Source of the DNA: Candidatus Competibacteraceae bacterium
GTDB lineage: Bacteria > Pseudomonadota > Gammaproteobacteria > Competibacterales > Competibacteraceae
Direction: 5' to 3'
Assembly: GCA_016699715.1 (NCBI GenBank)
Contig: CP065007.1
Coordinates: forward strand, 563,950 to 627,949
Length of the DNA: 64,000 nt
A program made the translations under genes and the position numbers. Shown piece after piece: positions 11,024 to 51,756 of the stretch. A model generated the notes under the pieces. It did no database searches. It was not told the DNA's origin and saw only the letters and a list, made by a program, of their open reading frames with translations. Every line of letters begins with the position of its first letter. Within the stretch, counting starts at the first letter, position 1.

Positions 11024-11881
11024 ATGCAGCGTCTGAAGATAAAACATCGCACTACTTATCAATTTTCCAGCATGGTGACGCTGCTGCCGCATCAGCTCCT
11101 GCTGCGTCCGCGCGAGGGGCACGATGTGCGTATCGAAGCATCGAAGCTCGACATCTCGCCTGCTCATCGTCTCAAGTGGCATCGCGACGTGTTCGACAAT
11201 TCGGTGGCCGTGGCCAGCTTTTCGGAAACCGCGCAGCGACTGGTCATCAGCAGCGAAGTGATCATCCGGCATTATGAAGTGGCGCCGCTCGATTTCATCG
11301 TCGAGGACTACGCGGTCTATTATCCGTTTGAATACCTCCAGGAAGAAAGGGTCGATCTTGCGCCCTTCCAGCAACCGGTTTATCTCGATCAGCAGCCGGC
11401 GGTGCGCGATTGGTTCAACAGCCTGGATCTGATGCGCGACAAGGTGGAAACCTATGTGTTGCTGGATCGACTGAACCGGCTCATTGCCAAGGAATTCAAG
11501 TACGTCGTCCGCGAGGAGCCCGGTGTGCAACCGCCCGAACTCACCTTGGACATCCACAGCGGTTCCTGTCGCGACTACGCGACCCTGTTTATCGAAACCT
11601 GCCGTTTTCTCGGCCTGGCGAGCCGGTTCGTCAGCGGTTATTCGCACGTTCCCGAACTTGGGCCAGGTGGTGCGACGACGCACGCCTGGGCGGAAGTCTA
11701 TCTGCCCGGTCCGGGTTGGAAAGGTTTCGATCCGACCGCCGGTGAGCTGACTGGCAGCCGGCATATCCCGGTCGCGGTGGCTCGTCATCCGGAAGCAGTG
11801 CCGCCGGTTGCCGGCAGCTTCGTCGGGCCCAAGGGCCAGATCCCGATGCTGACGGTCGATGTCCAAGTAACGGCGCTTTGA
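11024..11881 (+). CDS. Transglutaminase-family protein (N-terminal Bact_transglu_N-like region plus transglutaminase core)
   Basis: 285-aa ORF. Core motifs GSCRDYATLFIETCR (Cys), THAWAEVYLPGPGWKGFDPT (His, Asp). Confidence 0.85.
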   Translation: MQRLKIKHRTTYQFSSMVTLLPHQLLLRPREGHDVRIEASKLDISPAHRLKWHRDVFDNSVAVASFSETAQRLVISSEVIIRHYEVAPLDFIVEDYAVYYPFEYLQEERVDLAPFQQPVYLDQQPAVRDWFNSLDLMRDKVETYVLLDRLNRLIAKEFKYVVREEPGVQPPELTLDIHSGSCRDYATLFIETCRFLGLASRFVSGYSHVPELGPGGATTHAWAEVYLPGPGWKGFDPTAGELTGSRHIPVAVARHPEAVPPVAGSFVGPKGQIPMLTVDVQVTAL

Positions 11882-11971
11882 GGGAATATTGACCAGTCAG
11901 GTACGGGTCGTCATCGAAGAGACCCTATCAACTTGATTTGTCTGATTTTCATTGAATTTTTCAATAGACAC

Positions 11972-12000
11972 TTGTTTTGTCTTGTCCTGTACCTTATAGT
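11972..12000 (+). promoter_or_regulatory. Candidate sigma70 promoter for the cold-shock gene (TTGTTT-17 nt-TATAGT), implying a ~140-nt 5' UTR
   Basis: -35-like TTGTTT at 11972..11977, 17-nt spacer, -10-like TATAGT at 11995..12000, in an AT-rich region. A long leader is expected for cspA-type genes. Prediction by eye only. Confidence 0.35.
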
Positions 12001-12147
12001 GATCGGTGCAAGATTTTTAAGTAGATTATCTGCCCATCCGCTGCAAACCCTTTACTTGGTATTCGGCTCGTCAGTTCCTCTATTTTGACTCTTGTGCCCA
12101 TGAGCGGCTGCTCAATTTTTTCAATCTTTTTTCGAGATCTTAAAGAC

Positions 12148-12354
12148 ATGGCAAGTGGTACTGTTAAATGGTTTAACGAAGCAAAAGGCTTTGGTTTCAT
12201 TTCCCCGGACGACGGCGGCGAAGATTTATTCGCGCACTTCTCGGCCATTCAAGGGCAAGGGTTCAAAACCCTTAGGGAAGCCCAGAAGGTTTCATTTGAT
12301 GTAACCACCGGCCCCAAAGGTAAGCAGGCAGCCAATATCCGCTCCATGGACTAA
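12148..12354 (+). CDS. cspA: CspA-family cold-shock protein (68 aa)
   Basis: Track ORF 12085..12354, start moved to ATG 12148 ([34 protein letters not shown]). RNP1 (KGFGFI) and RNP2-like (LFAHF) motifs present. Confidence 0.95.
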
Positions 12355-12376
12355 GCGTTCAGGATTGAGATTGATG

Positions 12377-12408
12377 AAATAGCCCGGCTTCGCCGGGCTA
12401 TTTCGTTT
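12377..12408 (+). terminator. Rho-independent terminator downstream of cspA
   Basis: Perfect 12-bp stem AAATAGCCCGGC / GCCGGGCTATTT (12377..12388 and 12392..12403) around a 3-nt loop, followed by cgTTT. Confidence 0.7.
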
Positions 12409-12537
12409 GGTCCTCGATCTCCGCCTTCCTGGGGCTGACGGACAGGCGCTTCATCGTTTGCGTGGATCACTTCGAGCGGGACTGGCGATTCTTTATGGCC
12501 ACAAAGCGTTTCAGCTTCGAGCAGCCTCCACACTAAG

Positions 12538-12566
12538 GAACTGCGCAAAAATAACTTGGTTATTTT
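12538..12566. repeat. Left terminal inverted repeat of the ISAzo13-family element
   Basis: See the mobile-element entry; 28/29 match to the reverse complement of 13808..13836. Confidence 0.85.
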
Positions 12567-12575
12567 GATTAAAAT

Positions 12576-13814
12576 ATGATTGTATGTAGTATGCATGATG
12601 AAGAGGCGATCAAACACAAATTTCAGGTACTTAAACCACTTTTAGACGAGCGGAGCCGTCGATGGTGGGCGGCTTGTGAGGCCGAGGTACTGGGTTGGGG
12701 CGGAATAGCGGTCGTGTCGCAAGCCACGGGAATCTCCCGAACGACGATTGCGGCAGGTTTGCGCGAATACCGACAACCAACAGAGCGGTCGCAAGCGGTG
12801 GCGGTACCCCGGACACGGCAGGCGGGCGGGGGTCGAAAACCGCTCACGCAGCAAGATCCTCATCTGTTGCGCGATTTGGAATCACTGGTCGATCCGGTCA
12901 CGCGGGGTGATCCGCAATCACCCCTGCGGTGGACGTGCAAAAGTACCTACAAACTGGCGAACGAACTCGACGGGATGGGACATCAGGTGGGGGCGCGCAC
13001 GGTTGCACACCTCTTGCGGAAGATGCACTACAGTTTGCAAGCGAATCGGAAGACGCACGAAGGGGGAGATCATCCCGATCGGGATGCCCAGTTCCGTCAT
13101 ATCAATGACCAGACGAAAGCCTTTCAAGTCCGCCATCAGCCGGTAGTGTCCGTCGATACCAAGAAGAAGGAGTTAGTGGGCGACTTCAAAAACGCTGGGC
13201 GAGAATGGCAGCCCAAAGGGACGCCCGAGGCTGTTCGGGTCTACGATTTTCTGGATCCGCAGCTGGGCAAAGCGGTGCCCTATGGGGTCTATGATGTCAC
13301 GACCAATACCGGCTGGGTCACCGTGGGCATGGATCATGATACGGCGGAATTTGCCGTGGAAACCGTGCGACATTGGTGGCAACAAATGGGGATGAGGACT
13401 TATCCGGGCGCTACTGAGTTGTTGATCATTGCTGATGGGGGCGGGAGTAACGGCTCGCGTCTCCGACTGTGGAAAACGCAGTTGCAACAACTGGCGGACG
13501 AGACACAGTTGCGGATCCTGGTCTGTCATTTGCCACCCGGCACCAGCAAGTGGAATAAGATCGAGCATCGACTGTTTGCTTACATTACGCAGAATTGGCG
13601 CGGACGCCCCCTGACGAGCCATGCGGTGATCGTCAATCTCATCGGTAATACCACCACACAGACGGGTCTCTCTATCCATGCCGAACTCGATACTCGCCCC
13701 TACGCGACGGGAATAAAAGTCACCGATGAGGAATTGGCTGCGGTACAGATCGAGCGGGACGCCTTTCACGGTGAATGGAATTACACCATCGTTCCCAGAG
13801 CATCGGGAAAATAA
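12576..13814 (+). CDS. ISAzo13-family (Rhodopirellula-type DDE) transposase
   Basis: 412-aa ORF. LLDERSRRWWAACEAEVLGWGG N-terminus and the hallmark CHLPPGTSKWNKIEHRLFAYITQNWRGRPL segment. The stop codon (13812..13814) lies inside IRR. Confidence 0.9.
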   Translation: MIVCSMHDEEAIKHKFQVLKPLLDERSRRWWAACEAEVLGWGGIAVVSQATGISRTTIAAGLREYRQPTERSQAVAVPRTRQAGGGRKPLTQQDPHLLRDLESLVDPVTRGDPQSPLRWTCKSTYKLANELDGMGHQVGARTVAHLLRKMHYSLQANRKTHEGGDHPDRDAQFRHINDQTKAFQVRHQPVVSVDTKKKELVGDFKNAGREWQPKGTPEAVRVYDFLDPQLGKAVPYGVYDVTTNTGWVTVGMDHDTAEFAVETVRHWWQQMGMRTYPGATELLIIADGGGSNGSRLRLWKTQLQQLADETQLRILVCHLPPGTSKWNKIEHRLFAYITQNWRGRPLTSHAVIVNLIGNTTTQTGLSIHAELDTRPYATGIKVTDEELAAVQIERDAFHGEWNYTIVPRASGK

Positions 13815-13836
13815 CCAAGTTATTTTTGCGCGGTTC
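13808..13836. repeat. Right terminal inverted repeat of the ISAzo13-family element
   Basis: See the mobile-element entry. Confidence 0.85.
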
Positions 13837-13849
13837 CTAAGGAATTCTT

Positions 13850-14683
13850 ATGCTGATCCGGGCCGGTTACGACATTATCTTCGAGCATCCGGCACCGACG
13901 CCGATCATCGTGATGCTCTATCCTCATCCCTCACGCGGACCCTCGATTCGTCGGGGCGACTATCTGCTGGTCGAACCGCCGGTGCAGGTCAGCGAATACA
14001 TCGACGTGTTTGGCAACCGCTGTGGCCGTTTGGTGGCCCCCGCCGGTCCCATCCGCTTTTGGAACGACGCGGTGGTCGAGGATAGCGGTCAGCCGGACCA
14101 GCAGAATCCCGCCGCCGAACAGCACGAAATCCACGACTTGCCGGATGCGACGCTCACCTTCCTGATGCCGAGCCGTTATTGCGAGGTGGATCGGATGGTG
14201 GATCTGGCCTGGCAACTGTTCGGCACCGTGCCGAAGGGTTGGGCGCGAGTACAGGCAATCTGTGACTTCGTGCATAATCACATCATGTTCGACTATATGC
14301 AGGCCCGCAAGACCCGTACCGCCTACGAAACCTATCAAGAGCGAGTCGGCGTCTGTCGTGACTTCACCCACTTGGCGGTCACGTTCTGCCGCTGCTTGAA
14401 CATCCCGGCGCGATATTGCACCGGCTATCTGGGCGACATCGGGGTGCCGGTGACGGGTCCGATGGATTTCAGCGCCTGGTTCGAGGCGTATTTGGGCGGT
14501 CGCTGGTACCCTTTCGATCCGCGTAACAACATACCTCGCATCGGTCGAGTGCTGATGGCCCATGGTCTCGATGCCGCCGATGTGGCGCTGCTGACTTCTT
14601 TCGGCCCCAGCCGGTTGGAACGATTCACGGTATGGACCGACGAGGTGGGCGAGGACGCCCTGTTGCCGGTCCCGAGTCCATAG
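13850..14683 (+). CDS. Transglutaminase-like family protein (second, shorter paralog type)
   Basis: 277-aa ORF. GVCRDFTHLAVTFCR (Cys) and ...MDFSAWFEAYLGGRWYPFDPRN (Asp present; Ser where His is expected). AAGGA RBS 8 nt upstream of the ATG, immediately after the IS end. Confidence 0.85.
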   Translation: MLIRAGYDIIFEHPAPTPIIVMLYPHPSRGPSIRRGDYLLVEPPVQVSEYIDVFGNRCGRLVAPAGPIRFWNDAVVEDSGQPDQQNPAAEQHEIHDLPDATLTFLMPSRYCEVDRMVDLAWQLFGTVPKGWARVQAICDFVHNHIMFDYMQARKTRTAYETYQERVGVCRDFTHLAVTFCRCLNIPARYCTGYLGDIGVPVTGPMDFSAWFEAYLGGRWYPFDPRNNIPRIGRVLMAHGLDAADVALLTSFGPSRLERFTVWTDEVGEDALLPVPSP

Positions 14684-15896: not shown

Positions 15897-18068
15897 CTAC
15901 TGCCGTTGCGGGAGGGAATCCGAGCGCTCGCTGTAGCGGGGAGACCAATGATCACGGCGCTCAATCCGGGCGGTTTCGCCGTTGCCGTTCAGCGCCCGGT
16001 TGGCGCTTTCCAAACCACGTTGCACTTCCGAGCCCACCACCTTGCTGGTGCGGCTGACCCAGCGGGTGAAGGTTTCAGCCGGACCGCGGACATCGTTGGC
16101 CGTGCCCGCCGCCGGTCTGGAGCGGCTCACCAGCTTGATCGGTGGCAGGGTCGGCGGTGCCGGTTGCGAGCGCGATTTCAGTTCGATCGGTGGTAGCGTC
16201 AGCGCCGTGGGTTGCGAGCGCGATTTCAGTTCGATCGGCGGTAGGGTCGGCGACGCTGGTTGTGGCCGTGGCGCGGCGCGGGCGACCGCTGGTTTGGCGG
16301 ACGCGGCGGCGGGTCGGGTCGCGCGCGCAGCAGCGGCGGGGGTCGCTTTGGCGGCGCGGCGGCTGCGGGTGGCCGGTGTGGCTTTGGCGGTGCGGCGGGC
16401 GCGGGTGGAGGTCGCCGCCGTTGGCGCGGTCGGTTTCGATGCCGATTTCGTGACCCGCGAAGCTGGTACTGGCGCTGGTGCGTTTTCTTTGACGGTGGGC
16501 GCGACGGGGGCCGCTTTGACGGTTCTTGCCTGGGTCGGATGTTTGGGCCGAGCCGCCGGAACGGGTTTCGGCGTGGCGGGCGTCACGATCTCGGGTGGAG
16601 CAACGATAACCACCGGCTCGACGGGTTCGACCTCGTTAGGAGCAGCGACGGTTGTTGCCGGTTCGGTTTCGGCATCGGTTTCGGTGGGCGCCGGTGGATC
16701 GGTATTGTCCACGACCGGTGCGGCGTCCACCTCCTGGCGTGATTCCGGCGCGGCGGTGGAGGTCGGTGGTGGTGGCGCGTCGGCGACCTTGGGTGTCGGA
16801 GTCGGGAGTACGGCCGGTTCCGCCGGTGGCGCGGCATCGAATGTCACTGGGGCGCTGGCGACGGCGTCCGGCGACTGCTCGTGATCCTGTCGGATCTGAC
16901 CGGGCGGCTGGAGGAGGAGCGTCCAGGCCAGCGCGCCCGCCAGCCCGAGTATCCCGGCCAGCCCCACCGACCGTCGCAGCCAGGGCGACAAAGTCGGCGC
17001 GGTGGTGTGGCGTGGGTGTCGGCGCGGCGAATCGGCCGACAGCGGCAGGTCCCAGTCCGGTTCCGTGGTTGGGGCGGACAGGATGGGCTGGCCGGCGCGC
17101 GCCGCGTCCAGCACGGCACGGATGGCGGCGCCGTCGGCTGGCCGGTCGGCGGGGTCGCGCGCCAGCAATTGCTCGATCAGGTCCGTCAACAGGGCCGCCG
17201 CGCCGCCGTGCCCGTGTTCCGGCAGCGCCGGTACCGTCCAGAATTCGATGGAACGCCGCAGCCGTTCCCGCTCGTCCCCGGTGATGCCGCCCAGTTGCTC
17301 GCGCCGCTGGCCGGCGCCTTCCTGACCATGCAGGGCCAGCAGCTGACCGAGCCGGCGCTGGGCCTCGGTGGTCGGCTGCTCGGTGATCAGGCTGAACAGC
17401 AGCAGTCCCAGAGCGTAGTAGTCGGCGCGGTAGTCCACCGCGTACTCGCAGCCGCCCGCGCCGTGACCGACCGGCAATATCTGCTCCGGCGCCATGGTGG
17501 CGGGGGTGCCGATGAACGAACGGGTGCTGTCACCGTTCTCACGTTTGAGCGAACCGAAATCGGCCAGCTTGAGCAGATCGCCGTCGTCGCCGACCAGGAT
17601 GTTGCTGAGTTTAAGATCGCGGTAAACGAAGCCAGCACGATGGATAACCTCCAGGCCCGTCAAAATTTGCCTGGCCCAGCCAAGAATGCGGTCCAGTTCC
17701 TGGGGTAGCGCATCGTCCCGTCGCTGCTGTGCCAGCCACTGACCGAGGTTGGCCTGCAATCGCTCCAGCACCAGCACCGGCTGATGGTCGATTTGATCGT
17801 GGTCGAGCAGGGCGACGATATGCCGCGACTGTTCGGCGCTCAGGCCGTCCAGAAAGGTGATCTCCCGCTCCAGGTGCGCGCGCCAGTGACCCTGTAGGGC
17901 GGGATCGGCCTGGGACATCGCCTCGGTGTTGATGAACTTCAGGGCGACGGCGCGTCCACTGGCATCGGTAGCCGCCCAAACTTGGCCGTAGCTGCCGGCG
18001 CCAGGCGAAAGAATGGCGCCGAGCCGGTAACTTCGGCCGTTGATCGCGATTCGTTCACCGCTTTGCAT
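15897..18068 (-). CDS. Hanks-type Ser/Thr protein kinase, single-pass membrane protein with a long Pro/Ala/Lys-rich C-terminal region
   Basis: 723-aa ORF. GAGSYGQVW (G-loop), VALKF (Lys), VYRDLKLSNILV (catalytic loop, Y-R-D), LADFGS, GTPATMAPEQ. TM segment SVGLAGILGLAGALAWTLLL at about residues 370-390, then low-complexity sequence with tandem PPIELKSRSQP repeats. Confidence 0.9.
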   Translation of the reverse strand: MQSGERIAINGRSYRLGAILSPGAGSYGQVWAATDASGRAVALKFINTEAMSQADPALQGHWRAHLEREITFLDGLSAEQSRHIVALLDHDQIDHQPVLVLERLQANLGQWLAQQRRDDALPQELDRILGWARQILTGLEVIHRAGFVYRDLKLSNILVGDDGDLLKLADFGSLKRENGDSTRSFIGTPATMAPEQILPVGHGAGGCEYAVDYRADYYALGLLLFSLITEQPTTEAQRRLGQLLALHGQEGAGQRREQLGGITGDERERLRRSIEFWTVPALPEHGHGGAAALLTDLIEQLLARDPADRPADGAAIRAVLDAARAGQPILSAPTTEPDWDLPLSADSPRRHPRHTTAPTLSPWLRRSVGLAGILGLAGALAWTLLLQPPGQIRQDHEQSPDAVASAPVTFDAAPPAEPAVLPTPTPKVADAPPPPTSTAAPESRQEVDAAPVVDNTDPPAPTETDAETEPATTVAAPNEVEPVEPVVIVAPPEIVTPATPKPVPAARPKHPTQARTVKAAPVAPTVKENAPAPVPASRVTKSASKPTAPTAATSTRARRTAKATPATRSRRAAKATPAAAARATRPAAASAKPAVARAAPRPQPASPTLPPIELKSRSQPTALTLPPIELKSRSQPAPPTLPPIKLVSRSRPAAGTANDVRGPAETFTRWVSRTSKVVGSEVQRGLESANRALNGNGETARIERRDHWSPRYSERSDSLPQRQ
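16137..16275. repeat. 48-bp tandem repeat (~2.9 copies) inside the kinase C-terminal coding region
   Basis: gatcggtggcagggtcggcggtgccggttgcgagcgcgatttcagttc (16137..16184) is repeated with a few substitutions at 16185..16232 and partially from 16233. It encodes TLPPIELKSRSQP.. units on the minus strand. Confidence 0.85.
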
Positions 18069-18169: not shown

Positions 18170-21100
18170 ATGAAATCTGTATCGATACTGAATCGTGCCG
18201 CATCGCGTCGGCTGTTGCCATCCGCCCTGTTCGTGCTGGGCGTGGTTCTTGGCATGGGGGCGTTATGGGCGCAACTGGCGGCGATTTATACCCGGCCGAC
18301 GCCCCTGCCGGCGGCGCCGGCGCGGTTGCCGGCGGGCTTGCCGGAGGAGGCGGTGACCGTGCCCGCCGAAGCGGGATTTCAGTCGATTAGCCTACGCCAA
18401 GGGCTGCTGCTGGTTCGAGGACCGGACCGACCGATCGGCCAGCAGGACCTGGCCTTGTGCGATCAAAGCGTCGATTCCGCCGCTGGACCCGTCATGGCGC
18501 CGCTGTATGTCGGCTGGGACTGGCCACGGCTGCGGGAAGCCGCCGCCGCCAATCGTGCCGCTCGCCCCTCCCGGCCGATGGATGGCGGTTTGAAGAACTC
18601 ATTGCTGGACGATGGTCCCGACGGGGTGGACGTACCGGCTTTCGCCGTGACCGCGGAACCGGCGGGTGGGCCGCCGCGACCGTATGCCGACGCGGGGTCG
18701 TTGCGGGTGACCCTGTATGATCGCCGACCGGTCTTGCTGCTGGCGGACACGGCGGAAACGGGCACGGGGCCGGCGCTGGCATTCCGGCGCGATCTCTGGT
18801 TGCTGTGGAACGCCGGCCCGGTTGTCGCCGGGCACTGGGATCGCGCGCTGCGAATACGATTGCTGGAGGATCGCGTCTGTCCGCTCGGGCGACTGCGGAT
18901 CGAGGTATACGGTCCTTCACCGGAAAATGCCGGGATGGTCGACGCGGAACCGCGAACCGTGCTGTGGTATGCGGGCGACGGCTCGGCGCGGGAATTCCGC
19001 CTGGCGCCTGGCCATTACGCGCCCGCCGCGCCGTCACCGCCTCGCGAGGACGCCGAGCTGTTCGAGCGGTCGCTGGCCGCCGGTTTGCTGCGATCGGGCG
19101 AAGATGGCCGGATTGCCATTGCGCCCGCCGATCTGTCATTGCGCCGCGCGTTCGCCCGTTTTCACCCCGATCTGCTGGCATCCGGCGACGACGAGCACGA
19201 TTGGTTGGATGGACCCTGGAGCGCTGAAACGCAGCGCCTGCATCAGGCACTGCGTTTCAGCGTCACCGGCCGCTACGTACGCCGTCAGGTGGCCACGTTC
19301 AACGCCCGCCAACTGCTGGCGGCGGTGCGCTGGCGGCCGGAGAATGCCGATCCGAGCGGAGATTGGCGGGCGGATTGGAAGGAGGTGCCGCTGGTGTTGA
19401 CCGGGTCCATGCCACTGCTGGCCGAACGCCTGTTCACCGAAGCGCCACATGGTTGGCAAGCCTGGCGGCGGGTGGCGCGCTGGCCGGCACTGGAGCAGCG
19501 GTGGCCGGTGCGGTTTCGGTTAAGCCTGCCGCGACCGGCCCGGTCCGGCGAGCGGCTGGAACTCCTGGTGGTGGGCGGCCCTCCGGCCGTGAGCGGTGCC
19601 GCGGTGCTGGCCAGCGCGCCGCGTTGCGTGGACGCGCGACCCTGCGCCGAGCGGGATGCGCTGGCCCGCTGGTTGCGGCTGGAAATGCGGGCGGGCGCCA
19701 CGGAATTGGAACTGGTTTTTCAACCGCTGCCGGCCGAGGTATTCCCCGGTTTGTACCGTTACGACTTTGCCCATATCCGCCGGGTCGATGGTCGCTTGCG
19801 CTGGTACGATTCGCCGGGGGCCAATGGTGGCGATCCGTCCCGACCGTCGCCGGCCGAGGTGACGCTGCGCGACCGGGAAGGGACTCTGTTGTGGGAAGCC
19901 GGCCAACCGACCGGAGCCGTGTGGGAGCTGGGATTGGCGGCGCTGGTCGGTCTGGGTCCGGTCCATGCCGGTTCGGTGGGCGGCGTGCTGGCGCGGTTGG
20001 GCCGACACGGCGCAACGGTGGTCGAGGCCCGCCTGACCGTGGACTCTCGCTTGCAACAGGCAGCGCGGCGGGCCTTGCTGGAACGGTTGCCGGCCATCAG
20101 TACCACGGCGAGCGAAACCGATGCCCGACAGGAGGAGCGCGTGGCGAGCCTGATCGTGTTGGATGCCGACCGAGGCGATATCCTGGCCGTGGCCGGTAGC
20201 CCGGAACCGCCGGTCGGCATTGTCTGGAGCGATCTATCCACGTTCGTGGCGGCCGTGCGGCCACGCCGCAATCCGCTGTGGGTTCGAGCCTGGCAGCGCG
20301 ACGGCGATGGATTGGACTCGGCCGGCTCGGCTTTTGAGCTGGTCGATGCCTTGTTGCTGGAACGGGAAGCCGGCCATCGCCCGCAATTGGCGGCGGCGCT
20401 GGCGGGTTTGAGCGCCGGCGAGTTGGCGGGATGGCCGCCCGCGTTGGCCTATGGTTTTGCGGCGGACGCGGCGTGTTATCCGGTCCACGCCGGTGGTCTC
20501 GAACCGTCGGCGCTTTGCGATGAACCGGGTGGCGGGCAGACCTTACTGGAACGGATGCGACGCCACGGCGACCAGCGGTATGGCCTGGTTCAGGCGTTGC
20601 GCGATTCCGCGCGCGGCTGGTTCGCCTGGCTGGTGGAGAGCACCGATGCCACGCTGGACGACGCGGGTTCGTCGTGCCTGGCCAGTGCGCGGGCGCTGAC
20701 TCCGGCGGCGTTGCGGGGGGTGCGACCGCTGCTGGATATCATGGCCGAACTTGATTTCGACTCGGCCCAGGATCTGGATGGCGGCTTGTTGCCGGCCGGC
20801 CTGATCGCGGCGAACGATGTTTTGCGAGCCAGCGCGGCGGCACTGGAACCGATGAGCGATCGCGGGCGGGTCCGGCGCGCGGCGCTGGGACAGGGGGTAT
20901 ATGTCACGCCGCTGCAACTCGCCGAACTGGCGGCGGCTATCGCCACCGGCCAGCGGATGCCGCCGAGAGTGTTGGCCGAGCTGAACGGCCAACCGGTGCG
21001 AGATCCGGCGGCAACCGCGCTCGGCATCGCCACCGACCGTATCCGACGGGGCATGCGGCTGGCGCTGAACGAGGAACCGCTCCGTACCGCTTTTGCAGGT

Positions 21101-21346
21101 TTGCGCTTCGATACGATCCGAGCGTCGCTCTATCTGAAGGCTGGCGCCGCATGGTTGGATGCCACGAAAGCGGCGGCGAATGCCTGGCTGGTGGGTTGGC
21201 TGGAGCCGGGTGCGCTACCGGGCGAGAATCGGCGTCTGGCCTTCGCTTGCTGGATCAGTCCCGCCACCGGTCCCGACGGTACGGAATGCGGCGAGTTGAC
21301 GGCGGCCTGGCTGACGGCACTGGCTGGGGCGAAAAGCGATGAGTGA
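18170..21346 (+). CDS. Large membrane-anchored class-B-PBP-like protein with degenerate (SAFE / SAR / KAG) penicillin-binding motifs and a ~630-aa N-terminal region of unknown function
   Basis: Track ORF 18143..21346 (GTG); the first ATG is at 18170. N-terminal TM (LPSALFVLGVVLGMGALWAQLAAI). The C-terminal ~400 aa parallel the transpeptidase domain by eye: VASLIVLDADRGDILAVAGSP, AGSAFELV (SxxK position), LRDSARGWFAWL (SxN position), YVTPLQLAELAAAIATG, LYLKAGAAW (KTG position), NAWLVGW. Confidence 0.7.
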   Translation: MKSVSILNRAASRRLLPSALFVLGVVLGMGALWAQLAAIYTRPTPLPAAPARLPAGLPEEAVTVPAEAGFQSISLRQGLLLVRGPDRPIGQQDLALCDQSVDSAAGPVMAPLYVGWDWPRLREAAAANRAARPSRPMDGGLKNSLLDDGPDGVDVPAFAVTAEPAGGPPRPYADAGSLRVTLYDRRPVLLLADTAETGTGPALAFRRDLWLLWNAGPVVAGHWDRALRIRLLEDRVCPLGRLRIEVYGPSPENAGMVDAEPRTVLWYAGDGSAREFRLAPGHYAPAAPSPPREDAELFERSLAAGLLRSGEDGRIAIAPADLSLRRAFARFHPDLLASGDDEHDWLDGPWSAETQRLHQALRFSVTGRYVRRQVATFNARQLLAAVRWRPENADPSGDWRADWKEVPLVLTGSMPLLAERLFTEAPHGWQAWRRVARWPALEQRWPVRFRLSLPRPARSGERLELLVVGGPPAVSGAAVLASAPRCVDARPCAERDALARWLRLEMRAGATELELVFQPLPAEVFPGLYRYDFAHIRRVDGRLRWYDSPGANGGDPSRPSPAEVTLRDREGTLLWEAGQPTGAVWELGLAALVGLGPVHAGSVGGVLARLGRHGATVVEARLTVDSRLQQAARRALLERLPAISTTASETDARQEERVASLIVLDADRGDILAVAGSPEPPVGIVWSDLSTFVAAVRPRRNPLWVRAWQRDGDGLDSAGSAFELVDALLLEREAGHRPQLAAALAGLSAGELAGWPPALAYGFAADAACYPVHAGGLEPSALCDEPGGGQTLLERMRRHGDQRYGLVQALRDSARGWFAWLVESTDATLDDAGSSCLASARALTPAALRGVRPLLDIMAELDFDSAQDLDGGLLPAGLIAANDVLRASAAALEPMSDRGRVRRAALGQGVYVTPLQLAELAAAIATGQRMPPRVLAELNGQPVRDPAATALGIATDRIRRGMRLALNEEPLRTAFAGLRFDTIRASLYLKAGAAWLDATKAAANAWLVGWLEPGALPGENRRLAFACWISPATGPDGTECGELTAAWLTALAGAKSDE

Positions 21347-23729
21347 ATCTGGACCCCGCGCCGGCGGCGATCCTCCCGTCACGTCCCGCTGGCTGGCGCC
21401 GTGGGTTGACCGGTGGTGGTTGCCATTGCTCTGGTTGCTGCCGGTGTTGGCGATGGGGTGGACAGTGTATCGGGCACCGGCCTGGCTGGAACCCCGGATA
21501 CTGACCGTCACTTTGGAACCTGGCCAAACGGTCATGTTGGGCCGCGAGGCGTTGCGGGCGCCCCAGGCCGACAGCGAACATATTCTGCTGCGACGCGAAG
21601 CCGGCGGCTGGCGGCTGGCCAATATCGCCGCCGGCAAGCAGGTGTTATGGCAACCGGCCCGTGGCGGCGACGAGCGGCCGATCCGGGAATGGCCGCTGCG
21701 GGTGGGAGCGACGTTCGTCGTGGGCGGTCAAGCCTTTAGCGTGCTGGGCGCGGAAAGTGGGCGACTGGTGCTGCAAGGGGGCGGGCGGCGCTGGGATTAC
21801 GATGGTTTTCGTTTGCGCCGGGACGGCCAGCCGCTGCCCGAATGCTACCCGGACTGGCGGAGCCCTTGGCGCGAACGCTTGGCCAAACTGGGATGGTTCG
21901 GCCTGATCCAGCGATCGCTGCGCTTGGGTGGCGGCGTCTATTGCGCCGACCGACTGGGCTTGGTGGGGGTGCCGCTGGATACCGTGGTGCTGGCGCCCGC
22001 CGGCTTGGGCTTCGTGCTGCGCCCCGGCGAGGCCGGACGACCGGACGGTCCGGCGGTGACGGTGGCGGCGGGTGGGCCGGAGGCCGAATCGCTGTGGCGG
22101 CGTTCCGTCCCGCTGGCGGTTGGCGACAACTTGATCGTCGGCCGTACCCGATATCGAGTGCTACGGACCGCGCCGACCTTGGAACTGGCGGTCGTGGCCC
22201 ATGCCCAGCGCTGGCCCGCCGCGATAGCCCCACGTCCGGTCACGCCGCCAGTGGAGGTGCGCTGGCGCCCGGTGGCCTGGCTATGGCCACCCGGTCCGGG
22301 CGCGCTGGTCTGGCCACTGGGCCTGGCGCTGCCTCTGTTGGTGCTGGGGCTGGTCTGGCCGGTTCGGGCGGGTGGCGGGCGGTGGCCGAGCGTGGGCGAC
22401 CGTGGCCGGATCGCGGGCGCGCTGGCGTTGGCCGGGGGGGGACTGGGTCTCTATCTGAGCAGTTTGATCGTTCCGGTGCTGTGGCCCTACTTGTTGGCGT
22501 GGCCGGCGCTGCTGCTTTGGCTGACGGCGGTACGCTCGCCGTGGAGCCTTGGTTTGCTGGTCGTGCTGACGCTGTTGCTGGGCGGTGGGTGGGTCACCCT
22601 GCTGCAATTGGGCGCCGGCGCCGAAGAGTCCGGTTGGCCGCGCTTCGGTGGCGGCGGCGCGGCGCTGGCCGGGGCATTCGGCTGGCTGACGTGGGCCGGG
22701 TGGAGCGTCTGGCGCCGCTGGCGGCCGGCCGGCCGGATGGATTTCCGGCTGGCACGCTGGGGGTCGCTGGCGCTGGGCGGCGCGGCGCTGACCTTGCTGG
22801 CGGCGCAGGCCGCGTTTGGCGACGAGGGCGGCTGGCGCGGTTTCCAGCCGTTCGAACTGGCCAAGCTGGCATTGGTGCTGTTAGCGGCTCATGCTTTGAC
22901 GGTCCGCGTGGAGGCGGGAAGTGCCCGCAAGCTTTTCCGATGGGCGCGTTCCGCGGGACCCGTGCTGTTGTTGCTGGCGGCGAGCGGTTTTGCACTGGTG
23001 GTTCTGCGCGATTTTTCGCCCCTGGTTTTGTTGCTGTTCTGGGTGCTGGCGCTCGTGCTGGCATGGGTGTTCCACCGACGAGTGCATCCTCGGCCGGGTG
23101 GGCGGTGGGGCAGCCGATTGACACTGCTCGTGTTGGTCGGGTTGCTCACGACCGGGGCGATGGGATTGCGCCAATGGCCGGACCGCTTGCCGTTGGGTTT
23201 GCAGCCAATTCGGATTCGAGCCTGGGTGGCGCCGGAACAGTACCCGCACGCCGGCTATCAACTGCGCCGGGCGCTGGAGGTGATTCGGGCCGGTGGCTGG
23301 ACCGGCGCGGTCTGGAGCGATACGGCCAACGGGCGGGTCATGACCGTGCCCCTGGTGGAAAACGACTTCACGCCGACGTTTTTCCTGAACCGCTACGGCG
23401 GTCTGGCGGCGTTGCTGCTGGTGGTCACCCAGACGGCGTTCATTCTGCTGCTGCTGGCGATCGCCGATCGCGCCCTGAGACGGAGCAACCGCAATGACCA
23501 GCGATCGGCGGCGTCTGGCGACTTCGCCTATTTCGCGCTGTGCGGCGGATCGGCCTTGATCGGCGCGCATTTTTTGGTGTCATGGGGCACCAATCTGGGA
23601 TTTCTGCCGGTGATGGGCCAGCCGATGTCGTTGCTCTCGGCCGCCGGCAGCCATCTGGTGCTATTCGTGTTGCCGGTCGTGGCGCTGGCCGTCACGGTCG
23701 AGGAAGGAGATTATGACCACCCACCCTAA
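21339..23729 (+). CDS. SEDS (FtsW/RodA/SpoVE)-like polytopic membrane protein with a ~300-aa N-terminal extension
   Basis: 796-aa ORF overlapping the upstream stop by 8 nt. The C-terminal ~480 aa parallel RodA motifs recalled from E. coli: GFQPFELAKLALVLLAAH (vs FQPSEIAKIA), LRDFSP (vs QPDLGT), GYQLRRALEVIRAGGWTG, VPLVENDFTPTFF (vs LPERHTDFIFAV), GFLPVMGQPMSLLSAAGS (vs GILPVVGVPLPLVSYGGS). The N-terminus has one TM, then two beta-rich modules with weak FHA-like features (VMLGRE...SEHILL; LIVGRTRYRVL). Confidence 0.7.
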   Translation: MSESGPRAGGDPPVTSRWLAPWVDRWWLPLLWLLPVLAMGWTVYRAPAWLEPRILTVTLEPGQTVMLGREALRAPQADSEHILLRREAGGWRLANIAAGKQVLWQPARGGDERPIREWPLRVGATFVVGGQAFSVLGAESGRLVLQGGGRRWDYDGFRLRRDGQPLPECYPDWRSPWRERLAKLGWFGLIQRSLRLGGGVYCADRLGLVGVPLDTVVLAPAGLGFVLRPGEAGRPDGPAVTVAAGGPEAESLWRRSVPLAVGDNLIVGRTRYRVLRTAPTLELAVVAHAQRWPAAIAPRPVTPPVEVRWRPVAWLWPPGPGALVWPLGLALPLLVLGLVWPVRAGGGRWPSVGDRGRIAGALALAGGGLGLYLSSLIVPVLWPYLLAWPALLLWLTAVRSPWSLGLLVVLTLLLGGGWVTLLQLGAGAEESGWPRFGGGGAALAGAFGWLTWAGWSVWRRWRPAGRMDFRLARWGSLALGGAALTLLAAQAAFGDEGGWRGFQPFELAKLALVLLAAHALTVRVEAGSARKLFRWARSAGPVLLLLAASGFALVVLRDFSPLVLLLFWVLALVLAWVFHRRVHPRPGGRWGSRLTLLVLVGLLTTGAMGLRQWPDRLPLGLQPIRIRAWVAPEQYPHAGYQLRRALEVIRAGGWTGAVWSDTANGRVMTVPLVENDFTPTFFLNRYGGLAALLLVVTQTAFILLLLAIADRALRRSNRNDQRSAASGDFAYFALCGGSALIGAHFLVSWGTNLGFLPVMGQPMSLLSAAGSHLVLFVLPVVALAVTVEEGDYDHPP

Positions 23730-25431
23730 TGCCCTGATTGCCTCCGATTACGTCATCTGCGTGACCTTGCGCGCGGTGCCGGACATCTTCAACGCCGAAT
23801 GGTTGTGGGATCGGGTTCGGAGCGGCCAGGAGGGCGTGTTGCTGCTGGAGGCACTCAAGCGCCATCCGCGGCGTATCGCGCGTTCCTCGGGCCAGCGCCA
23901 GGAAACCTACTACAGCCATGTCGTCATCCGGATTTCGGAACGCGATTCCATTCGCGACGAACGGCTGGAGGATGGGTTCGGCCACCGTTTGCTCCTGCGG
24001 GAGCTGCGGCGTCTGCACGAACGGGATCTGGGCGAGCATCTGGCCGAGAACGCGACGGTTCGTTATCGCCTGGAGCCGGACCCGGTGTTGCGTCCGGGCG
24101 AGGTGCAGGCGCTGTTCGGTCGGGCGATCTACCTGCCGGCCGACGACGAAGCGCCGGCCTTTCGGATCGAGGTGACGGCCGATGGGCAGAGCGATTGGCG
24201 GGACGTGGGATCGATCTATCCCGGCCAGCGGCTGACGCTGCTCAACGGCGACCGGCGCGCCAGCAGCTTCGCGGTGGTGGCCTGGCCGTTCCCAGGCAAC
24301 GAGTCGATATTGTTGCTGCGGCAGTCCAGGGCGCCGACCCAGGTGGATGTGGTGGAGGAGCCACCGGCCTGTCTGAATCTGAGCAGCGACGGTCAGGGCG
24401 GCTTCGTGGCGCGCGACCACCGCGGCCGCGGTTTGCGGCTGCGGGTCGTGGCGCTGTCGTCGGCGGGCGTGGAACCCTCGACCTTAGCGGAGCAGGCGCC
24501 GCCGGAATCGCCGGCGCGGCCGGAACAACGGCGCGTTGCCCCGGTCACCGATTTGGGCCAGCCGGCGTCGGGCTCGAAGCCATCCGCCCCGGCGGACGGC
24601 GATTACACGATGATCGATCATTGGGGTCGGCGCGAGCCGGTGTTCGGCATCCCGGTGCACTTCGAGGAACCGTCCGCGCCGCCGGCCGCCATTCTGGAGT
24701 CCTCCCCGTCACCCGCTCCCGCATCGCCGAATGGACTCGACCAGCACACCTGGATTCCCCGGCGACCGGCGGCTTGCTTGCAGGTGGTGGGCCTCGCCTT
24801 GCAGCGCTTGTCGACCTATGCGGCGGCCGGCATCAGCGACTGGCGGATCAGCTTCAACCGCGCGGGCGGGTTGGTGCTGGACAACCATCCCGATGCCGCC
24901 GCCTGGCTGCGGATCGACAGCGCGGATCGGCTGTTTGGCGAGGTCGTGGGGCTGTCGGCGTCGCTGGAACCGCCGAGCGTGTGGCGGCCGTTTCCGGATC
25001 TGGAACTGGAATTCCTCGCCGCGCCATCATCAATGGCGGGGCATTATCTCGGTTGGGTGCGGCTGCCGACGCCGCTGGCGCTGCCGGTCCCGCGCGAGCG
25101 GGCGGTGAGTTTCGGCCGCGGTTCGGAGGCGGACATCGCGCCACGCCTGCTGGCCGATCCGCGTTCCCTGCGCTGGGAGGGCAAACCGAACAAGACGGTT
25201 GGTATCAGCGCTGAATATCTGGGACTGTCGCGTCGCCATTTGCGGGTGCAGGTGCGGCGCGAGGATTGGTGGGTGCAGTTGGAAAGCCAGAATATGTCGG
25301 TTTACCGGCTGGCGCCGTCGGGCGAAGTGCTGGACGTGCTCAGCCCCGGCGTGGACACCGCCGCCGCCGCCAAGCCGGGCGATCTATTGGTGGCGGGGGG
25401 TTACGTACTGGCGCTGGGGGCGGTGGAGTGA
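23713..25431 (+). CDS. FHA-domain protein (C-terminal canonical FHA; N-terminal ~450 aa unknown)
   Basis: 572-aa ORF overlapping the upstream gene by 17 nt. C-terminus: VSFGRGSEADI...LGLSRRHLRVQV...LESQNMSVYRL...GDLLVAGGYVLAL carries the G-R, S-x-x-H and N signature residues of FHA domains. No TM segments. Confidence 0.75.
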   Translation: MTTHPNALIASDYVICVTLRAVPDIFNAEWLWDRVRSGQEGVLLLEALKRHPRRIARSSGQRQETYYSHVVIRISERDSIRDERLEDGFGHRLLLRELRRLHERDLGEHLAENATVRYRLEPDPVLRPGEVQALFGRAIYLPADDEAPAFRIEVTADGQSDWRDVGSIYPGQRLTLLNGDRRASSFAVVAWPFPGNESILLLRQSRAPTQVDVVEEPPACLNLSSDGQGGFVARDHRGRGLRLRVVALSSAGVEPSTLAEQAPPESPARPEQRRVAPVTDLGQPASGSKPSAPADGDYTMIDHWGRREPVFGIPVHFEEPSAPPAAILESSPSPAPASPNGLDQHTWIPRRPAACLQVVGLALQRLSTYAAAGISDWRISFNRAGGLVLDNHPDAAAWLRIDSADRLFGEVVGLSASLEPPSVWRPFPDLELEFLAAPSSMAGHYLGWVRLPTPLALPVPRERAVSFGRGSEADIAPRLLADPRSLRWEGKPNKTVGISAEYLGLSRRHLRVQVRREDWWVQLESQNMSVYRLAPSGEVLDVLSPGVDTAAAAKPGDLLVAGGYVLALGAVE

Positions 25432-42623: not shown

Positions 42624-43086
42624 CCTCCGCGAGCGCGGCGAGCAACGCCGCCAGATGCTCGGTGTCGGTCACACAACCCAGCCCCTCGTCAAGCGGTGCC
42701 AGCGCCTGAACGGGGGAGTCCGGCGACCCCATGCAGGCCGGCAGCGCCAGCAGGCGCGGGGCTTTGGCGAGCGTTTCGACCTGATCGCAAAGCAAGCCGA
42801 AGCGATCGGCGCCATTATCCAGTAACGCACAGATCCGTCGATTGTCCGGTAGTTGCGGCAATAGCCGCAATTCGCTGGATAGGCAGTACACCGGCCACCA
42901 CTCACCGCCGAGCGCGATGGCGCCGATACTTCGCGGTGCTTGCACCTCTTGGTCGATATCGAGGAGCGATTCCAGGGACCTGATCTCCGTTTGTGGCAAT
43001 AGCCATGAGTATCCACCCAGGGTTAGCTTGGCCAACGCCCGAGTCTCCCGCGGTTCGGCCACCGTGTTTCGAAGGGGTTGGCTCAT
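42604..43086 (-). CDS. CheW-like coupling protein
   Basis: 160-aa ORF with ATGA overlap to the CheA-like gene. LLPQTEIRSLESL...IGAIALGGEWWPVYCLS...ICALLDNGADRFGLLCDQVETL resembles the CheW fold pattern. Confidence 0.75.
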   Translation of the reverse strand: MSQPLRNTVAEPRETRALAKLTLGGYSWLLPQTEIRSLESLLDIDQEVQAPRSIGAIALGGEWWPVYCLSSELRLLPQLPDNRRICALLDNGADRFGLLCDQVETLAKAPRLLALPACMGSPDSPVQALAPLDEGLGCVTDTEHLAALLAALAEDAGGHH

Positions 43087-46000
43087 GAGTGCAATAACCT
43101 GTGTATCTGTTCGATGAGTTCGTCTTCCATGAACGGCTTGGTCAGATAAGTATCGACGCCGACGGTCTCGGCTTCATTCCGGTGCTTGGCGGTGGAGCGC
43201 GAGGTGATCATGATGACCGGTAAATCGTGGGTGGGCTGGTTGGCCCGCAGATGCGCGGTTAGCTCCAGGCCGTTCATGCGCGGCATCTCCAAGTCGGCTA
43301 ATACCAGGTCTGGGCGCTGGCCGTTGATGATTTCGATCGCCTCCAGGCCGTCGCGCGCGGTACGCACTTCGAAGCCGGCGTCTTGCACGAACTGCGCTAG
43401 CGAACGGCGCGCGCTCAGCGAATCGTCCACCGCCAGCACGATTTGTCGGTGGGGGACGGAGGCGGCGGATTTCGCCGATTGGGCAGCGGCCGTCGGTAAC
43501 CGCTGGCCGGCGGTGCGGGTGCGCAACAGCTCGGGCAGATCCAGCACCGGCGCCACGCTGCCGTCGCCAAGGATGGTGGCGCCCACGATGCCGGGGAGTG
43601 TGGGGATGTATTGGCCCATGTTTTTGACCACCAAGTCGCGGCTGTCCAACACTTCCTGCACCAGCACGGCTTGGAGGCTACCGGTTTCTTCTCGCACCAG
43701 CAGCACCGGCGCCGCGCTGCGGTCGTGCTCGCGCCGGTCTTGCGGCAGATTGAGCAGGTTTTCCAGCAAGGTGAGTTCGTGAGTGTCGTTGCCCAGTCGG
43801 TAGGTGGTTATTTTGCCCAGCGTCTGTATCTTGCCGGCTCCGGAGTACAGGATTTGTTCGACGCCGCGATCGGAGAGGGCATAGATCTGGTCCCGTACAC
43901 GCAACAGCAGCGCGTGGGTGGAGATCAGGGTGACCGGTAGCCGCAATTCCATCAGGCAACCCTTGCCCGCTTCGGTCTGGATACGCAGCGAGCCTTTCAT
44001 GTCCAACAGCCGGCTGTAGACCATGTCCATGCCGATGCCGCGCCCCGAGGTTTGAGTCGCCGAGCCACGGGTGGAGAATCCCGGCAGCAGGATCAACCGG
44101 GCCAGCTTGTCCGGCTCCAGCGGTTTGTCGGGGGCGAGCAGGCCACGTTCTTCCGCCGTCCGGCGGATCGCCGCCAGATCCAGCCCGGCGCCATCATCCC
44201 GGCAGTGGATGGCGATGTTGTTGCCCTCGCGCATGAAATGCAGCTCGATCCGTCCCGCTTGGGGTTTGCCCAGACGCTGGCGCTGGTGGGGCGACTCGAT
44301 GCCGTGATCGATCGCGTTGCGCAGGATGTGCATCAACGGATCGACCATGTTGTTGAGCACGTTGCTGTCCATGGGGGTGTCGGCGCCGCGTACCACCAGT
44401 TCCGCTTCCTTATCCACCAGCCGGCAGGTTTGGCGCACGCTGCGTTGTAGCCGGGGCACCATGGTTTGAATGGGCACCATGCGGGTACGCAGCACCGCTT
44501 CCTGGCTGTCCCGGTGTAGACGGCCCTGGTCTACCAGCAGCGAATCCAGCAGTACCAGGTTGTCCTCCACGGCGCGGTTCATCTCGCGGGCGTCGATGGC
44601 GGTTTCCACCAACCGGTGAGTAACCGTGTTAAGTTCGTTGTACTGTTCCAGTTCCAGGGGGTCGAAATCGCCGCGCTGTATCGATTTGGATAGTGGCGAG
44701 GATACGTTGCGGACATCGACCAGTTGTTCCAGCTCGGCGGTCAGGCCCTGGAACAGCCGATTTTGCGCCGCCACTGCTCGAGTGTGATCAATGGTTTTAC
44801 GAATCCGCTCCTGTACTTGGCCGGTGAGGATGATGCTTTCTCCCACCAGTCGCAGTAGGTTGTCCACTAGATGGGCGGGAACCCGCAAGGCCGTTTCGGT
44901 GGTCGAAGCGGCGGGTTGCTGCGGTGCGAGCGCGGTTTCTGGCGGTTGTGCGGCGGCGGCGGGAGGCTCTTCCGGTCGGGCAGTCGCCGGGGGCGGGATT
45001 TCGTCGCTGGCGGGCACTCCCACCCGGTCGATGCGGTTGGCCCAGTCCAACACGGTTTGCAGCACGGTCAGCGCCTGCGGCGGCGGCTCACTCATGCCCA
45101 GTAGCGCCTCGCTCATGGTTTCCAGGCAGTCGGCGGCGTTGAGCAGGGTATCGGCCAGCGGTCGGTTGGGCAGCACGCCATGCTTGGAGAGTGCTTGCAG
45201 GATATCTTCCATGTGGTGGGTCAGAGTGGCGATGCCACGCACCCCAACGGTGTTGCCGGCGCCCTTCAAGGTATGGGCGATGCGCCGCGCCACTTCCATG
45301 TCGGCGAGTTGGCCATCGCCGGCGGCCAGCCGTTGGATGGCGGTGGAGAAGTCCGCGGCTTGTTGGGGCAGTTCCTGCAGCAAGCCATCCAGCAAGTCCT
45401 GATTGACATCGGCCGGTAGTTCCAGCGATACATCGCTGGGTTGTGCCTGTTGCGGCCGGGCTTCCGCATCGGCTTCCTCGGTGACCAACTTCGGCGCAAG
45501 CAGCAGATCGCTCAGCGCGGTCGCGTCGGCGGCTGCCAGCGGTTGCGGCCAGTGAGTCTCTTGCAGATGCCGAATCAGTGCTTCGCATGTCGAGCGGTCG
45601 TCGGGCGCTCGCAGGTAGCTAAGCGCCAGCGCGGGCCAGGCGCCCACCACGCGCTGCTGCTCCGGATGCAGCGGGCCATCCTGAGCAGCCAGTTCGAGCA
45701 GGTTGGTGTACAGATAGGCACAGGCTTGTTGTAGGCCTGTCAAGTTGATGGAGGCCGAAGCCTCTCCCAGTCGCTCCAGGTATTCGGCATAGCCGGACCA
45801 AGCTTCGGCGCGGGTTTCGGGTGCGCTGTCGGCGGCCGAGACCACAGCCAAAACTTCAGTGGTGGCTTCGGCGATCTGTGCGATTTCCTCGCAAAGGATT
45901 TCCAACAGTTCCTGCTGGGCGGCGTCTGGCGCGAACGATGTTGCCGGACTTCCCAGATCTTCCGTGGCTTCCAGGTCTTCCGTGGCTTCCAGGTCTTCCG

Positions 46001-48911: not shown

Positions 48912-48955
48912 AATCTATATCTCGCTTTTAAGTTATTTTGAAATTAGCCAGGAAG

Positions 48956-49540: not shown

Positions 49541-49825
49541 AATAACCTCCAAATAATTCAGACCATGGTGTTGTCTGTTCATAACAACATGATTGACAAA
49601 AACCAAAAATTCTACATGGCGCTGGCATAAAAATGCCTGACGACAAGTGCCCAGTATTGCGGAGCCGCGATGGCGCGCGAACTGACCGATCTGACTCACG
49701 GCGTTGTCGATGCGGCTTACGCCTCAGAGCGATTTCACCTTTCCACCGTCACCGGCTTGTCACCGTGCCAGCACACTGACTCCAAAGTCATTCCTTATGC
49801 GTATGCGCGGAGATCTCCTCAAAAT

Positions 49826-51742: not shown

Positions 51743-51756
51743 CGGACCAGGACGGT

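Follow-up and report, generated by a model that had tools for sequence, protein, structure and literature searches.

What is a protein with the fold of a penicillin-binding protein (PBP) kept for, once all three of its catalytic motifs have been replaced? The question is raised by a locus in a 64,000-nucleotide stretch of DNA from a Candidatus Competibacteraceae bacterium (contig CP065007.1, positions 563,950 to 627,949 of the forward strand), which we call the window and whose own coordinates are used throughout. Here a giant gene whose product resembles class B PBPs (bPBPs) overlaps a gene of the SEDS family, in a cassette that also holds a kinase gene. What is new is that a giant bPBP-like partner of a SEDS protein has been inactivated in nature, and recurrently. 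On balance, we consider it probable that this natural pseudo-transpeptidase has been kept as a non-enzymatic structural or activating partner, a scaffold, of its cognate SEDS polymerase. The PBP-like gene and the features that bear on its activity are as follows.

18170..21346, + strand: giant class-B-PBP-like gene, 1058 amino acids (aa) from the ATG at 18170 (open reading frame (ORF) and translation).
18215..18289, + strand: predicted single N-terminal transmembrane (TM) helix of the PBP-like protein, residues 16-40 (helix in the structural model; hydrophobic LLPSALFVLGVVLGMGALWAQLAAIY).
20327..20338, + strand: degenerate motif 1, S720-A-F-E723 (tcg gct ttt gag), the Lys of SxxK replaced by Glu and the nucleophile Ser kept.
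20606..20614, + strand: degenerate motif 2, S813-A-R815 (tcc gcg cgc), the Asn of SxN replaced by Arg.
21074..21082, + strand: E969-P970-L971 in place of a family-conserved G-T-A, just upstream of motif 3 (conserved-column scan).
21137..21148, + strand: degenerate motif 3, K990-A-G-A993 (aag gct ggc at 21137-21145), both Thr of KTGT replaced by Ala.

Residues are numbered from ATG 18170, the start common to all database orthologs. The first-pass annotation of this DNA counted from a GTG at 18143, giving 1067 aa and numbers that are 9 higher (its S729, E732, S822, R824, K999 and G1001 are S720, E723, S813, R815, K990 and G992 here). It had read SAFE, SAR and KAG at 20327-20338, 20606-20614 and 21137-21145, flanked by the retained blocks VASLIVLDADRGDILAVAGSP, YVTPLQLAELAAAIATG and NAWLVGW, and the translation contains every one of them. 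Acylation and deacylation of PBPs require the Lys of SxxK, the Asn of SxN and the Thr of KTG. The loss of these residues suggests that the window protein would be unable to acylate.

The predicted layout of the PBP-like protein runs from an N-terminal TM anchor, a single predicted helix as in bitopic bPBPs, through a beta-rich region of ~560 aa to a pedestal-end and transpeptidase-like domain. The PF00905 match is marginal (22.7 bits against a cut-off of 22.1 in Pfam), as expected of a degenerate transpeptidase (TP) domain. The Pfam scan gave no match to the PF03717 pedestal, and the single sequence compared with PDB sequences by phmmer reached an insignificant best E of 0.13, so that profiles were needed. 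A profile built from 40 family sequences matched PBP2 of P. aeruginosa (7kis, E 6.6e-27) and of T. thermophilus (6pl5_B, E 6e-25), covering also the last ~60-110 residues that precede the TP domain in these structures. An AlphaFold2 model made with 38 homologs (mean pLDDT, the model's own per-residue confidence, 71.8) showed the TM helix at residues 16-40, a beta-rich part ending near residue 560 and, at the C-terminus, an alpha/beta domain. Foldseek returned 309 PDB matches to this model at E<=1e-3, and the whole top-50 consisted of class B PBPs, including PBP3, PBP2, M. tuberculosis PbpA (3upp/3upo) and bPBPs of Atopobium and Eggerthella. These aligned over the C-terminal 450-560 residues (E 4e-13, and about 1e-13 for the top matches) with TM-scores, normalised to the target, of up to 0.68. 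Together, Foldseek, the family profile and PF00905 identify the fold of the window protein as that of a PBP transpeptidase. The beta-rich region (residues ~50-560; window 18320-19850, + strand), larger than a pedestal and unlike it, has no Pfam match. It holds many family-invariant positions (E293, D294, G367, N378, R387, W432 and C492 among them), all of which the window protein keeps.

The same profile fixes the motif columns. GSTFK of the family falls on GSTVK/GSTFK of PBP2, SvNtWF on SCNTWY (the SCN of T. thermophilus PBP2) and KTGTA on KSGTA/KTGTA of the PBP2 structures. This is the profile-guided alignment that the first-pass annotation had proposed as a check, and it confirms all three motif columns against solved PBP2s. 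A database search yielded an ortholog set of 41 proteins, of which those with a source name come from Competibacteraceae, and one of which (P0001, 1058 aa) is 100% identical to the window protein. In the columns of the window SAFE, SAR and KAGA, 24 clusters and the distant P0041 carry S-x-F/A-K, S-L/V-N and K-T-G-T; since orthologs of the sister clade are canonical in the same columns, these are validated as the true motif positions. Conservation in the wider family is nearly complete at each of them: Lys in 99% of 131 representatives at motif 1, Asn in 100% of 133 at motif 2, the Thr at 991 in 99% and at 993 in 91% at motif 3, and each residue of the upstream G-T-A in 96%. A pattern scan for S..K, [SY].N and [KH][TS]G found none anywhere in the 1058 residues, which contain only 6 Lys, and therefore the protein holds no alternative motif set. 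The view that a PBP fold retains its Ser and has lost its acyl-enzyme residues is thus upheld by the PBP2 profile alignment, the fold match and the canonical orthologs.

How widely the loss extends was assessed across the ortholog set. The Competibacter clade of the window protein comprises 13 clusters (65-100% identity; Ca. Competibacter phosphatis, at 88%, is among them), and all 13 have S-x-x-E with the nucleophile Ser in place. The Asn of SxN is Arg in 12 clusters and Ser in the remaining one, Glu723 and Arg815 occurring together in 12/13; the motif 2 variants are SAR, SPR, SSS and ASR, and in P0009 the Ser of SxN has itself become Ala. The KTG reads KAG, KTG, KMG or RAG, and the Thr that follows is Ala throughout. 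Loss within the clade began with K->E and N->R, followed later by drift of KTG to KAG, KMG and RAG. Most of the 13 clusters have full-length ORFs, the shorter ones being P0012 (814 aa) and P0021 (824 aa), and the same substitutions are seen in independent assemblies from many samples. The first-pass annotation had held that canonical residues in the orthologs would point to strain-specific decay or sequencing error. The sister clade is indeed canonical, yet the substitutions are fixed in a clade of 13 clusters under purifying selection; therefore neither sequencing error nor strain-specific decay accounts for them. No genome in the species-level scan had a second, intact paralog.

A neighbour-joining tree rooted on Oxalobacteraceae homologs placed the canonical motif state as ancestral, with departures from it in no fewer than four lineages: the window clade, P0039/P0040 (AVFG|S, DFP and KSA|KAA, the nucleophile Ser also gone), P0036 (STFQ/ALD) and L013. 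The last of these, L013:8001-11201 from Ca. Competibacter sp. SCELSE-4-Com, reads SAFE/SSN/KTGT and is an apparent intermediate; its close sister L014 (dS 0.13, dS being synonymous divergence) is fully canonical. The same AAG->GAG change from Lys to Glu seems to have arisen a second time in L013, and this intermediate state could be a consensus artefact of a metagenome-assembled genome. An exhaustive profile search at E<=1e-30 gave 206 representatives at 50% identity, and motif states were taken from the best 150, of which 127 span all three columns. About 125 of these 127 are canonical, the departures being P0039 and P0247, with single Ser->Ala exceptions in P0163 and P0201. The distant P0247 (1026 aa, from a Logan assembly), outside the Competibacteraceae group, is fully degenerate (GAALI / SLS / ITA), which suggests additional independent losses elsewhere in the family. 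Looking up ten of the distant representatives by cluster yielded hardly any names. All correctly framed homologs from Massilia, Herbaspirillum and Janthinobacterium have canonical SxxK, SxN and KTG (the Oxalobacteraceae count leaves out L040, L042, L044 and L045, for which the ORF taken was in a wrong frame). Judged by the sequences compared, intact catalytic motifs are the default state of the family.

We then asked where in the protein the losses fall. Sixty-nine family columns are conserved at >=85%, and the window protein keeps 27/27 of them up to residue 673; all 12 that it has lost lie within the TP domain, 11 of them by substitution (K723E, N815R, G862D, L934V, V965A, G969E/T970P/A971L, T991A, T993A and G1036D) and one by a 14-16-aa deletion in the window clade, which takes a nearly invariant Asn out of the loop that joins motif 1 to motif 2. 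Most of the 12 fall within four short stretches, the three catalytic motifs among them.

Selection was estimated as the pairwise ratio of nonsynonymous to synonymous substitution (dN/dS) with a simple Nei-Gojobori estimator, on pairs that are not independent of one another. The TP domain gave 0.20-0.33 in the window clade (eight pairs, dS up to 1.35, the pair at about 1.35 being the window protein, WIN, versus L009) and 0.14-0.24 in the intact clade. The lowest value, 0.13, belongs to the L022/L023 pair, a dead lineage in which the nucleophile Ser has been lost as well. Therefore, the dead domain is maintained and not decaying. The SEDS polymerase domain gave 0.28-0.41 in the window clade versus 0.12-0.20 in the intact clade at comparable dS, the kinase domain 0.12-0.21 versus 0.12-0.25, and the C-terminal domain of the third operon gene 0.07-0.16 versus 0.10-0.25. 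These values suggest a modest relaxation that is confined to the two cell-wall proteins (the TP and SEDS domains) and not clade-wide; we grade it as suggestive because the pairs are not independent.

The adjacent gene encodes the SEDS partner.

21339..23729, + strand: SEDS (FtsW/RodA-family) gene, 796 aa (PF01098 E 2e-18; TIGR02210/TIGR02614; profile match to FtsW/RodA structures).
23364..23366, + strand: SEDS catalytic Asp D676 ('VENDFTP'), retained, aligning with the 'HTDF' Asp of P. aeruginosa FtsW and E. coli RodA.

The SEDS gene has the same orientation as the PBP-like gene, the end of the one and the beginning of the other share 8 nucleotides, and the two are translationally coupled, as in cognate pairs. 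In the profile alignment, QPFELAK of the window SEDS falls on QPSEIAK of FtsW/RodA; the single sequence compared with PDB sequences found nothing, so that here too a profile was needed. The catalytic Asp is invariant in 22 orthologs and is kept also in the partners of fully dead PBP-like proteins, and the QPxELxK motif is invariant or nearly so. With its catalytic residues intact in sequence, the SEDS polymerase is apparently active. The partners of P0039/P0040 (L023:10984-13173 and L002:8694-10883) read QPVELTQ, with Lys replaced by Gln in only this lineage, and keep ESDF. Before the polymerase domain, the SEDS protein carries an extra N-terminal TM helix and a beta-rich domain of ~260-280 aa (residues 49-311; window 21480-22340, + strand), modelled with pLDDT 85-94 over residues 30-330. 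Two N-terminal pieces had no Pfam domain match at E<=10, and Foldseek with the whole SEDS model gave no match at E<=0.001. By eye, the domain has GR...SxH...N stretches reminiscent of FHA domains.

Two further genes complete the cassette.

23713..25431, + strand: third operon gene, 572 aa, overlapping the SEDS stop by 17 nucleotides, without a Pfam domain and with an FHA-like C-terminus.
15897..18068, - strand: divergent Hanks-type Ser/Thr kinase gene, 723 aa (PF00069 E 2.7e-33), encoding a kinase domain, one TM segment and a Pro/Ala-rich extracytoplasmic tail.

The PBP-like, SEDS and FHA-like genes form a three-gene operon, the last encoding a cytoplasmic protein, with the kinase gene divergent from it, and these four genes are arranged in this way in all sufficiently long Competibacteraceae loci, whatever their motif state. 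The last ~120 aa of the 572-aa protein read FGRG...LSRRHL...ESQNM, a GR...SxxH...N pattern by eye; the UniRef name of the ortholog P0392 begins 'FHA domain-con...', and Pfam at E<=10 gave a faint FHA-clan match (PF16697, E 0.12). Pfam scans found no PF00498 match, and profile matches to the PDB were at chance level only. On this pattern, an FHA domain is likely. The kinase has only kinase-domain Pfam matches, with neither PASTA nor another recognisable sensor domain found. At the end of its tail (~16035-16190, - strand, residues ~628-678), inside a long Pro/Ala/Thr-rich segment, lie three tandem units of ~16 aa, TLPPIELKSRSQP... twice and then TLPPIKLVSRSRP. Among the ORFs scanned between 8119 and 30180 of the window, no PP2C phosphatase was matched.

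Known systems indicate what such a pair could do. SEDS polymerases are activated by bPBPs, and the bPBP is needed for this activation (10.1101/358663). Division can still go ahead with canonical bPBPs that are catalytically inactive, provided that a second bPBP does the cross-linking (PMC12516126; PMC12713402), a point for which PMC12516126 cites Sassine 2017 and Shrestha 2025. As in the RodA-PBP2 and FtsW-FtsI/PBP3 pairs, the window has a bitopic PBP-fold protein and an adjacent SEDS gene with a catalytic Asp and QPxExxK. Unlike in those pairs, all three motifs are substituted, the PBP-like protein is about twice as long with its ~560-aa beta-rich N-terminal region and lacks PF03717, the SEDS protein has an extra TM helix and domain, and the locus lies outside a dcw or mrd context. 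The behavior proposed here, an essential role without transpeptidase catalysis, is that of TP-dead B. subtilis PBP2B and C. difficile SpoVD (PMC12516126; PMC12713402); those, however, are laboratory point mutants of canonical enzymes, whereas the loss in the window is natural, multi-residue, clade-fixed and recurrent. We found no natural catalytically degenerate bPBPs in the literature, only engineered or conditionally dispensable ones, and an earlier description may exist.

The linkage to signaling genes also has a parallel. The actinobacterial fhaA-fhaB-pstP-rodA-pbpA-pknA-pknB locus likewise joins SEDS, bPBP, Hanks-type kinase and FHA-type genes (PMC6273383 Table 7; PMC6554272). The window cassette differs in having no PP2C gene, a kinase without PASTA, a tentative FHA assignment and a gammaproteobacterial host, and PbpA is an active transpeptidase of ~490 aa, whereas the window protein has 1058 aa and is degenerate. 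A survey across bacteria has catalogued non-canonical bPBP/SEDS genes with kinase and phosphatase genes on their flanks (PMC12516126), and it makes no mention of degenerate catalytic motifs.

Taken together, we favor the following model. In the course of evolution the TP domain has been inactivated through loss of the SxxK Lys, the SxN Asn, both KTGT Thr, the GTA and an Asn-containing loop; selection has kept the fold as well as the long N-terminal region and the blocks at the end of the pedestal. The PBP-like protein would no longer cross-link peptidoglycan, and would be retained as an obligatory partner that activates the cognate SEDS glycosyltransferase, the product of which other transpeptidases would cross-link in trans. 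Signaling through the kinase and the FHA-like protein may gate the activity of the SEDS/PBP-like pair. Both the activating role and the phospho-regulation are what we infer from gene content and from the systems above. The roles that the first-pass annotation had put forward, SEDS scaffold or activator or else sensor, may be right, being in keeping with a conserved and overlapping SEDS gene whose catalytic residues are intact.

Several observations weigh against this model. The catalytic Ser is kept in every cluster of the window clade, and a pure scaffold would not need it. The faster evolution of the SEDS domain in that clade could be a sign that the pair as a whole is becoming weaker as a synthase, in which case what has been conserved may be a role other than activating the polymerase. 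The dN/dS pairs, as said, are not independent. Finally, the PBP-like genes of Oxalobacteraceae and of a ~800-aa subfamily are not beside a SEDS gene, and the partnership is therefore not universal.

The alternative that survives best, although we think it unlikely, is that the dead TP domain serves as a non-acylating receptor for stem peptides or precursors and reports the status of the wall to the kinase and the FHA-like protein, the module being mainly one of signaling. Linkage of the PBP-like gene to a kinase gene holds in Competibacteraceae, Oxalobacteraceae and the ~800-aa subfamily, also at loci with no SEDS gene alongside, and a kinase without PASTA or a recognisable sensor domain would need a separate sensor. 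The signaling genes are under equal constraint in the two clades, the relaxation being seen in the SEDS and TP domains, and catalysis has been lost repeatedly with the gene kept. PBP-fold beta-lactam sensors are also known: PbpP (PMC8092216) and the sensor domain of BlaR1/MecR1 likewise put the PBP fold to a signaling-coupled use other than cross-linking. Those sensors, however, keep the Ser-Lys pair and are acylated by beta-lactams, whereas the window protein lacks the Lys, Asn and Thr and has neither an M56 protease nor a sigma-factor partner. PbpP, BlaR1 and MecR1 signal through acylation, for which the Ser-Lys pair is required. Moreover, most substrate-site residues are gone (K, N, T, T and GTA), so weaker ligand binding would be expected too, and contact between the PBP-like protein and the kinase is putative.

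A broader form of this thought, which we regard as doubtful, takes the giant PBP-like proteins of Competibacteraceae, Oxalobacteraceae and their metagenomic relatives as a kinase-coupled envelope module in which the PBP fold would act mainly as a non-catalytic wall receptor or scaffold. TP chemistry dispensable for the core function of such a module would explain at least four separate losses in which the gene, its N-terminal domain and its signaling partners were kept. The relatives outside Competibacteraceae include cultivable hosts: Massilia, Herbaspirillum and Janthinobacterium (L033-L049) have canonical members of 1050-1230 aa at 33-38% identity. Their operon differs: downstream lie four genes without Pfam domains and, beyond these, genes for a zinc-ribbon protein of ~740 aa and for a Ser/Thr kinase, and neither tblastn nor hhalign found a SEDS gene beside these homologs in the loci examined. 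In the ~800-aa subfamily, represented by P0208, the first ~290 residues are missing; its metagenome contig (L051:7599-13041) carries a cassette of PP2C phosphatase, PBP-like protein and kinase with an FGE-sulfatase domain. FGE-sulfatase and caspase-like genes also flank P0140 (L050).

It is quite improbable that the module is undergoing slow decay within the window clade, with a functionless PBP-like protein that survives through operon structure or because the loss is recent. Such decay could account for the somewhat higher dN/dS of the TP and SEDS polymerase domains relative to the intact clade and for the continuing drift of the remaining catalytic positions (KTG to KAG/KMG/RAG, and the SxN Ser to Ala in P0009). 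However, a dN/dS of 0.20-0.33 is far below 1 and holds out to a dS of about 1.35 (WIN versus L009), the ORFs are full-length in most of the 13 clusters, every one of the 27 family-conserved residues up to residue 673 is kept, and the lineage that also lacks the nucleophile Ser has the lowest TP dN/dS of all, 0.13.

Re-tooling of the active site, with SxxE and SxR performing another chemistry (for example as a Ser-Glu hydrolase of peptidoglycan or of some other substrate), is highly improbable. The Ser present in 13/13 clusters and the joint occurrence of Glu723 and Arg815 in 12 of them would fit a functional pair, and Glu serves as the general base in class A beta-lactamases. The rest of the pocket has nevertheless kept drifting after K->E (KAG/KTG/KMG/RAG and SAR/SPR/SSS/ASR) with no new conserved constellation, the GTA motif and the Asn loop are lost too, and the Glu-Arg pairing may equally be a salt bridge that replaces a Lys-Asn contact.

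An artefact of misaligned motifs, sequencing error or a wrong frame, which the marginal Pfam match and insignificant phmmer result of the window protein alone might suggest, has a negligible probability and was rejected, as PBP2 profile alignments place the motifs, orthologs are canonical in the same columns with no motifs elsewhere, the substitutions recur in independent assemblies and the frame is open for 1058 codons.

The cassette is surrounded by ordinary chromosomal genes, encoding a pyruvate dehydrogenase complex, ABC transport and a chemotaxis-like cluster. Upstream, two separate transglutaminase-like genes at 11024-11881 and 13850-14683 flank an ISAzo13-family DDE transposase gene (12576-13814, PF07592 E 9e-146), and the GC content dips to 0.54 around 11024-14683. 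Lower values still, 0.47-0.52 against ~0.65 elsewhere, occur at 1-2000 and 48001-56000, the latter within the chemotaxis-like cluster, which contains a CheA-like hybrid kinase (43083-47057), a methyl-accepting chemotaxis protein, Cache and CheW genes and two Peripla_BP_6 genes. These low-GC stretches may have been horizontally acquired.

Because three features that define an active bPBP are absent, we do not file the window protein as a functional bPBP. The first-pass annotation had remarked that pseudo-transpeptidase partners of SEDS proteins are not a standard annotation category, and rightly so: pipelines call the degenerate members 'hypothetical protein' and their intact relatives 'penicillin-binding transpeptidase domain-containing protein'. 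Pseudo-transpeptidase SEDS partners are therefore invisible in standard surveys.

SEDS-bPBP pairs are core cell-wall synthases and targets of beta-lactams. The hosts of the present module are uncultured wastewater bacteria, and the module is accessory. So far, the separability of the structural or activating role of a bPBP from its catalysis has been studied through laboratory point mutants. Here, one orthologous family holds both intact members and several that were inactivated independently, and the gene partners are the same throughout; this amounts to a natural experiment, and its matched pairs can be used to ask which bPBP surfaces suffice for SEDS activation and where the cross-linking comes from. 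If the kinase-coupled view were true, the PBP-fold module would be a Gram-negative counterpart of PASTA-kinase wall sensing. Under the drug, glycan synthesis might be sustained by such a beta-lactam-insensitive pair.

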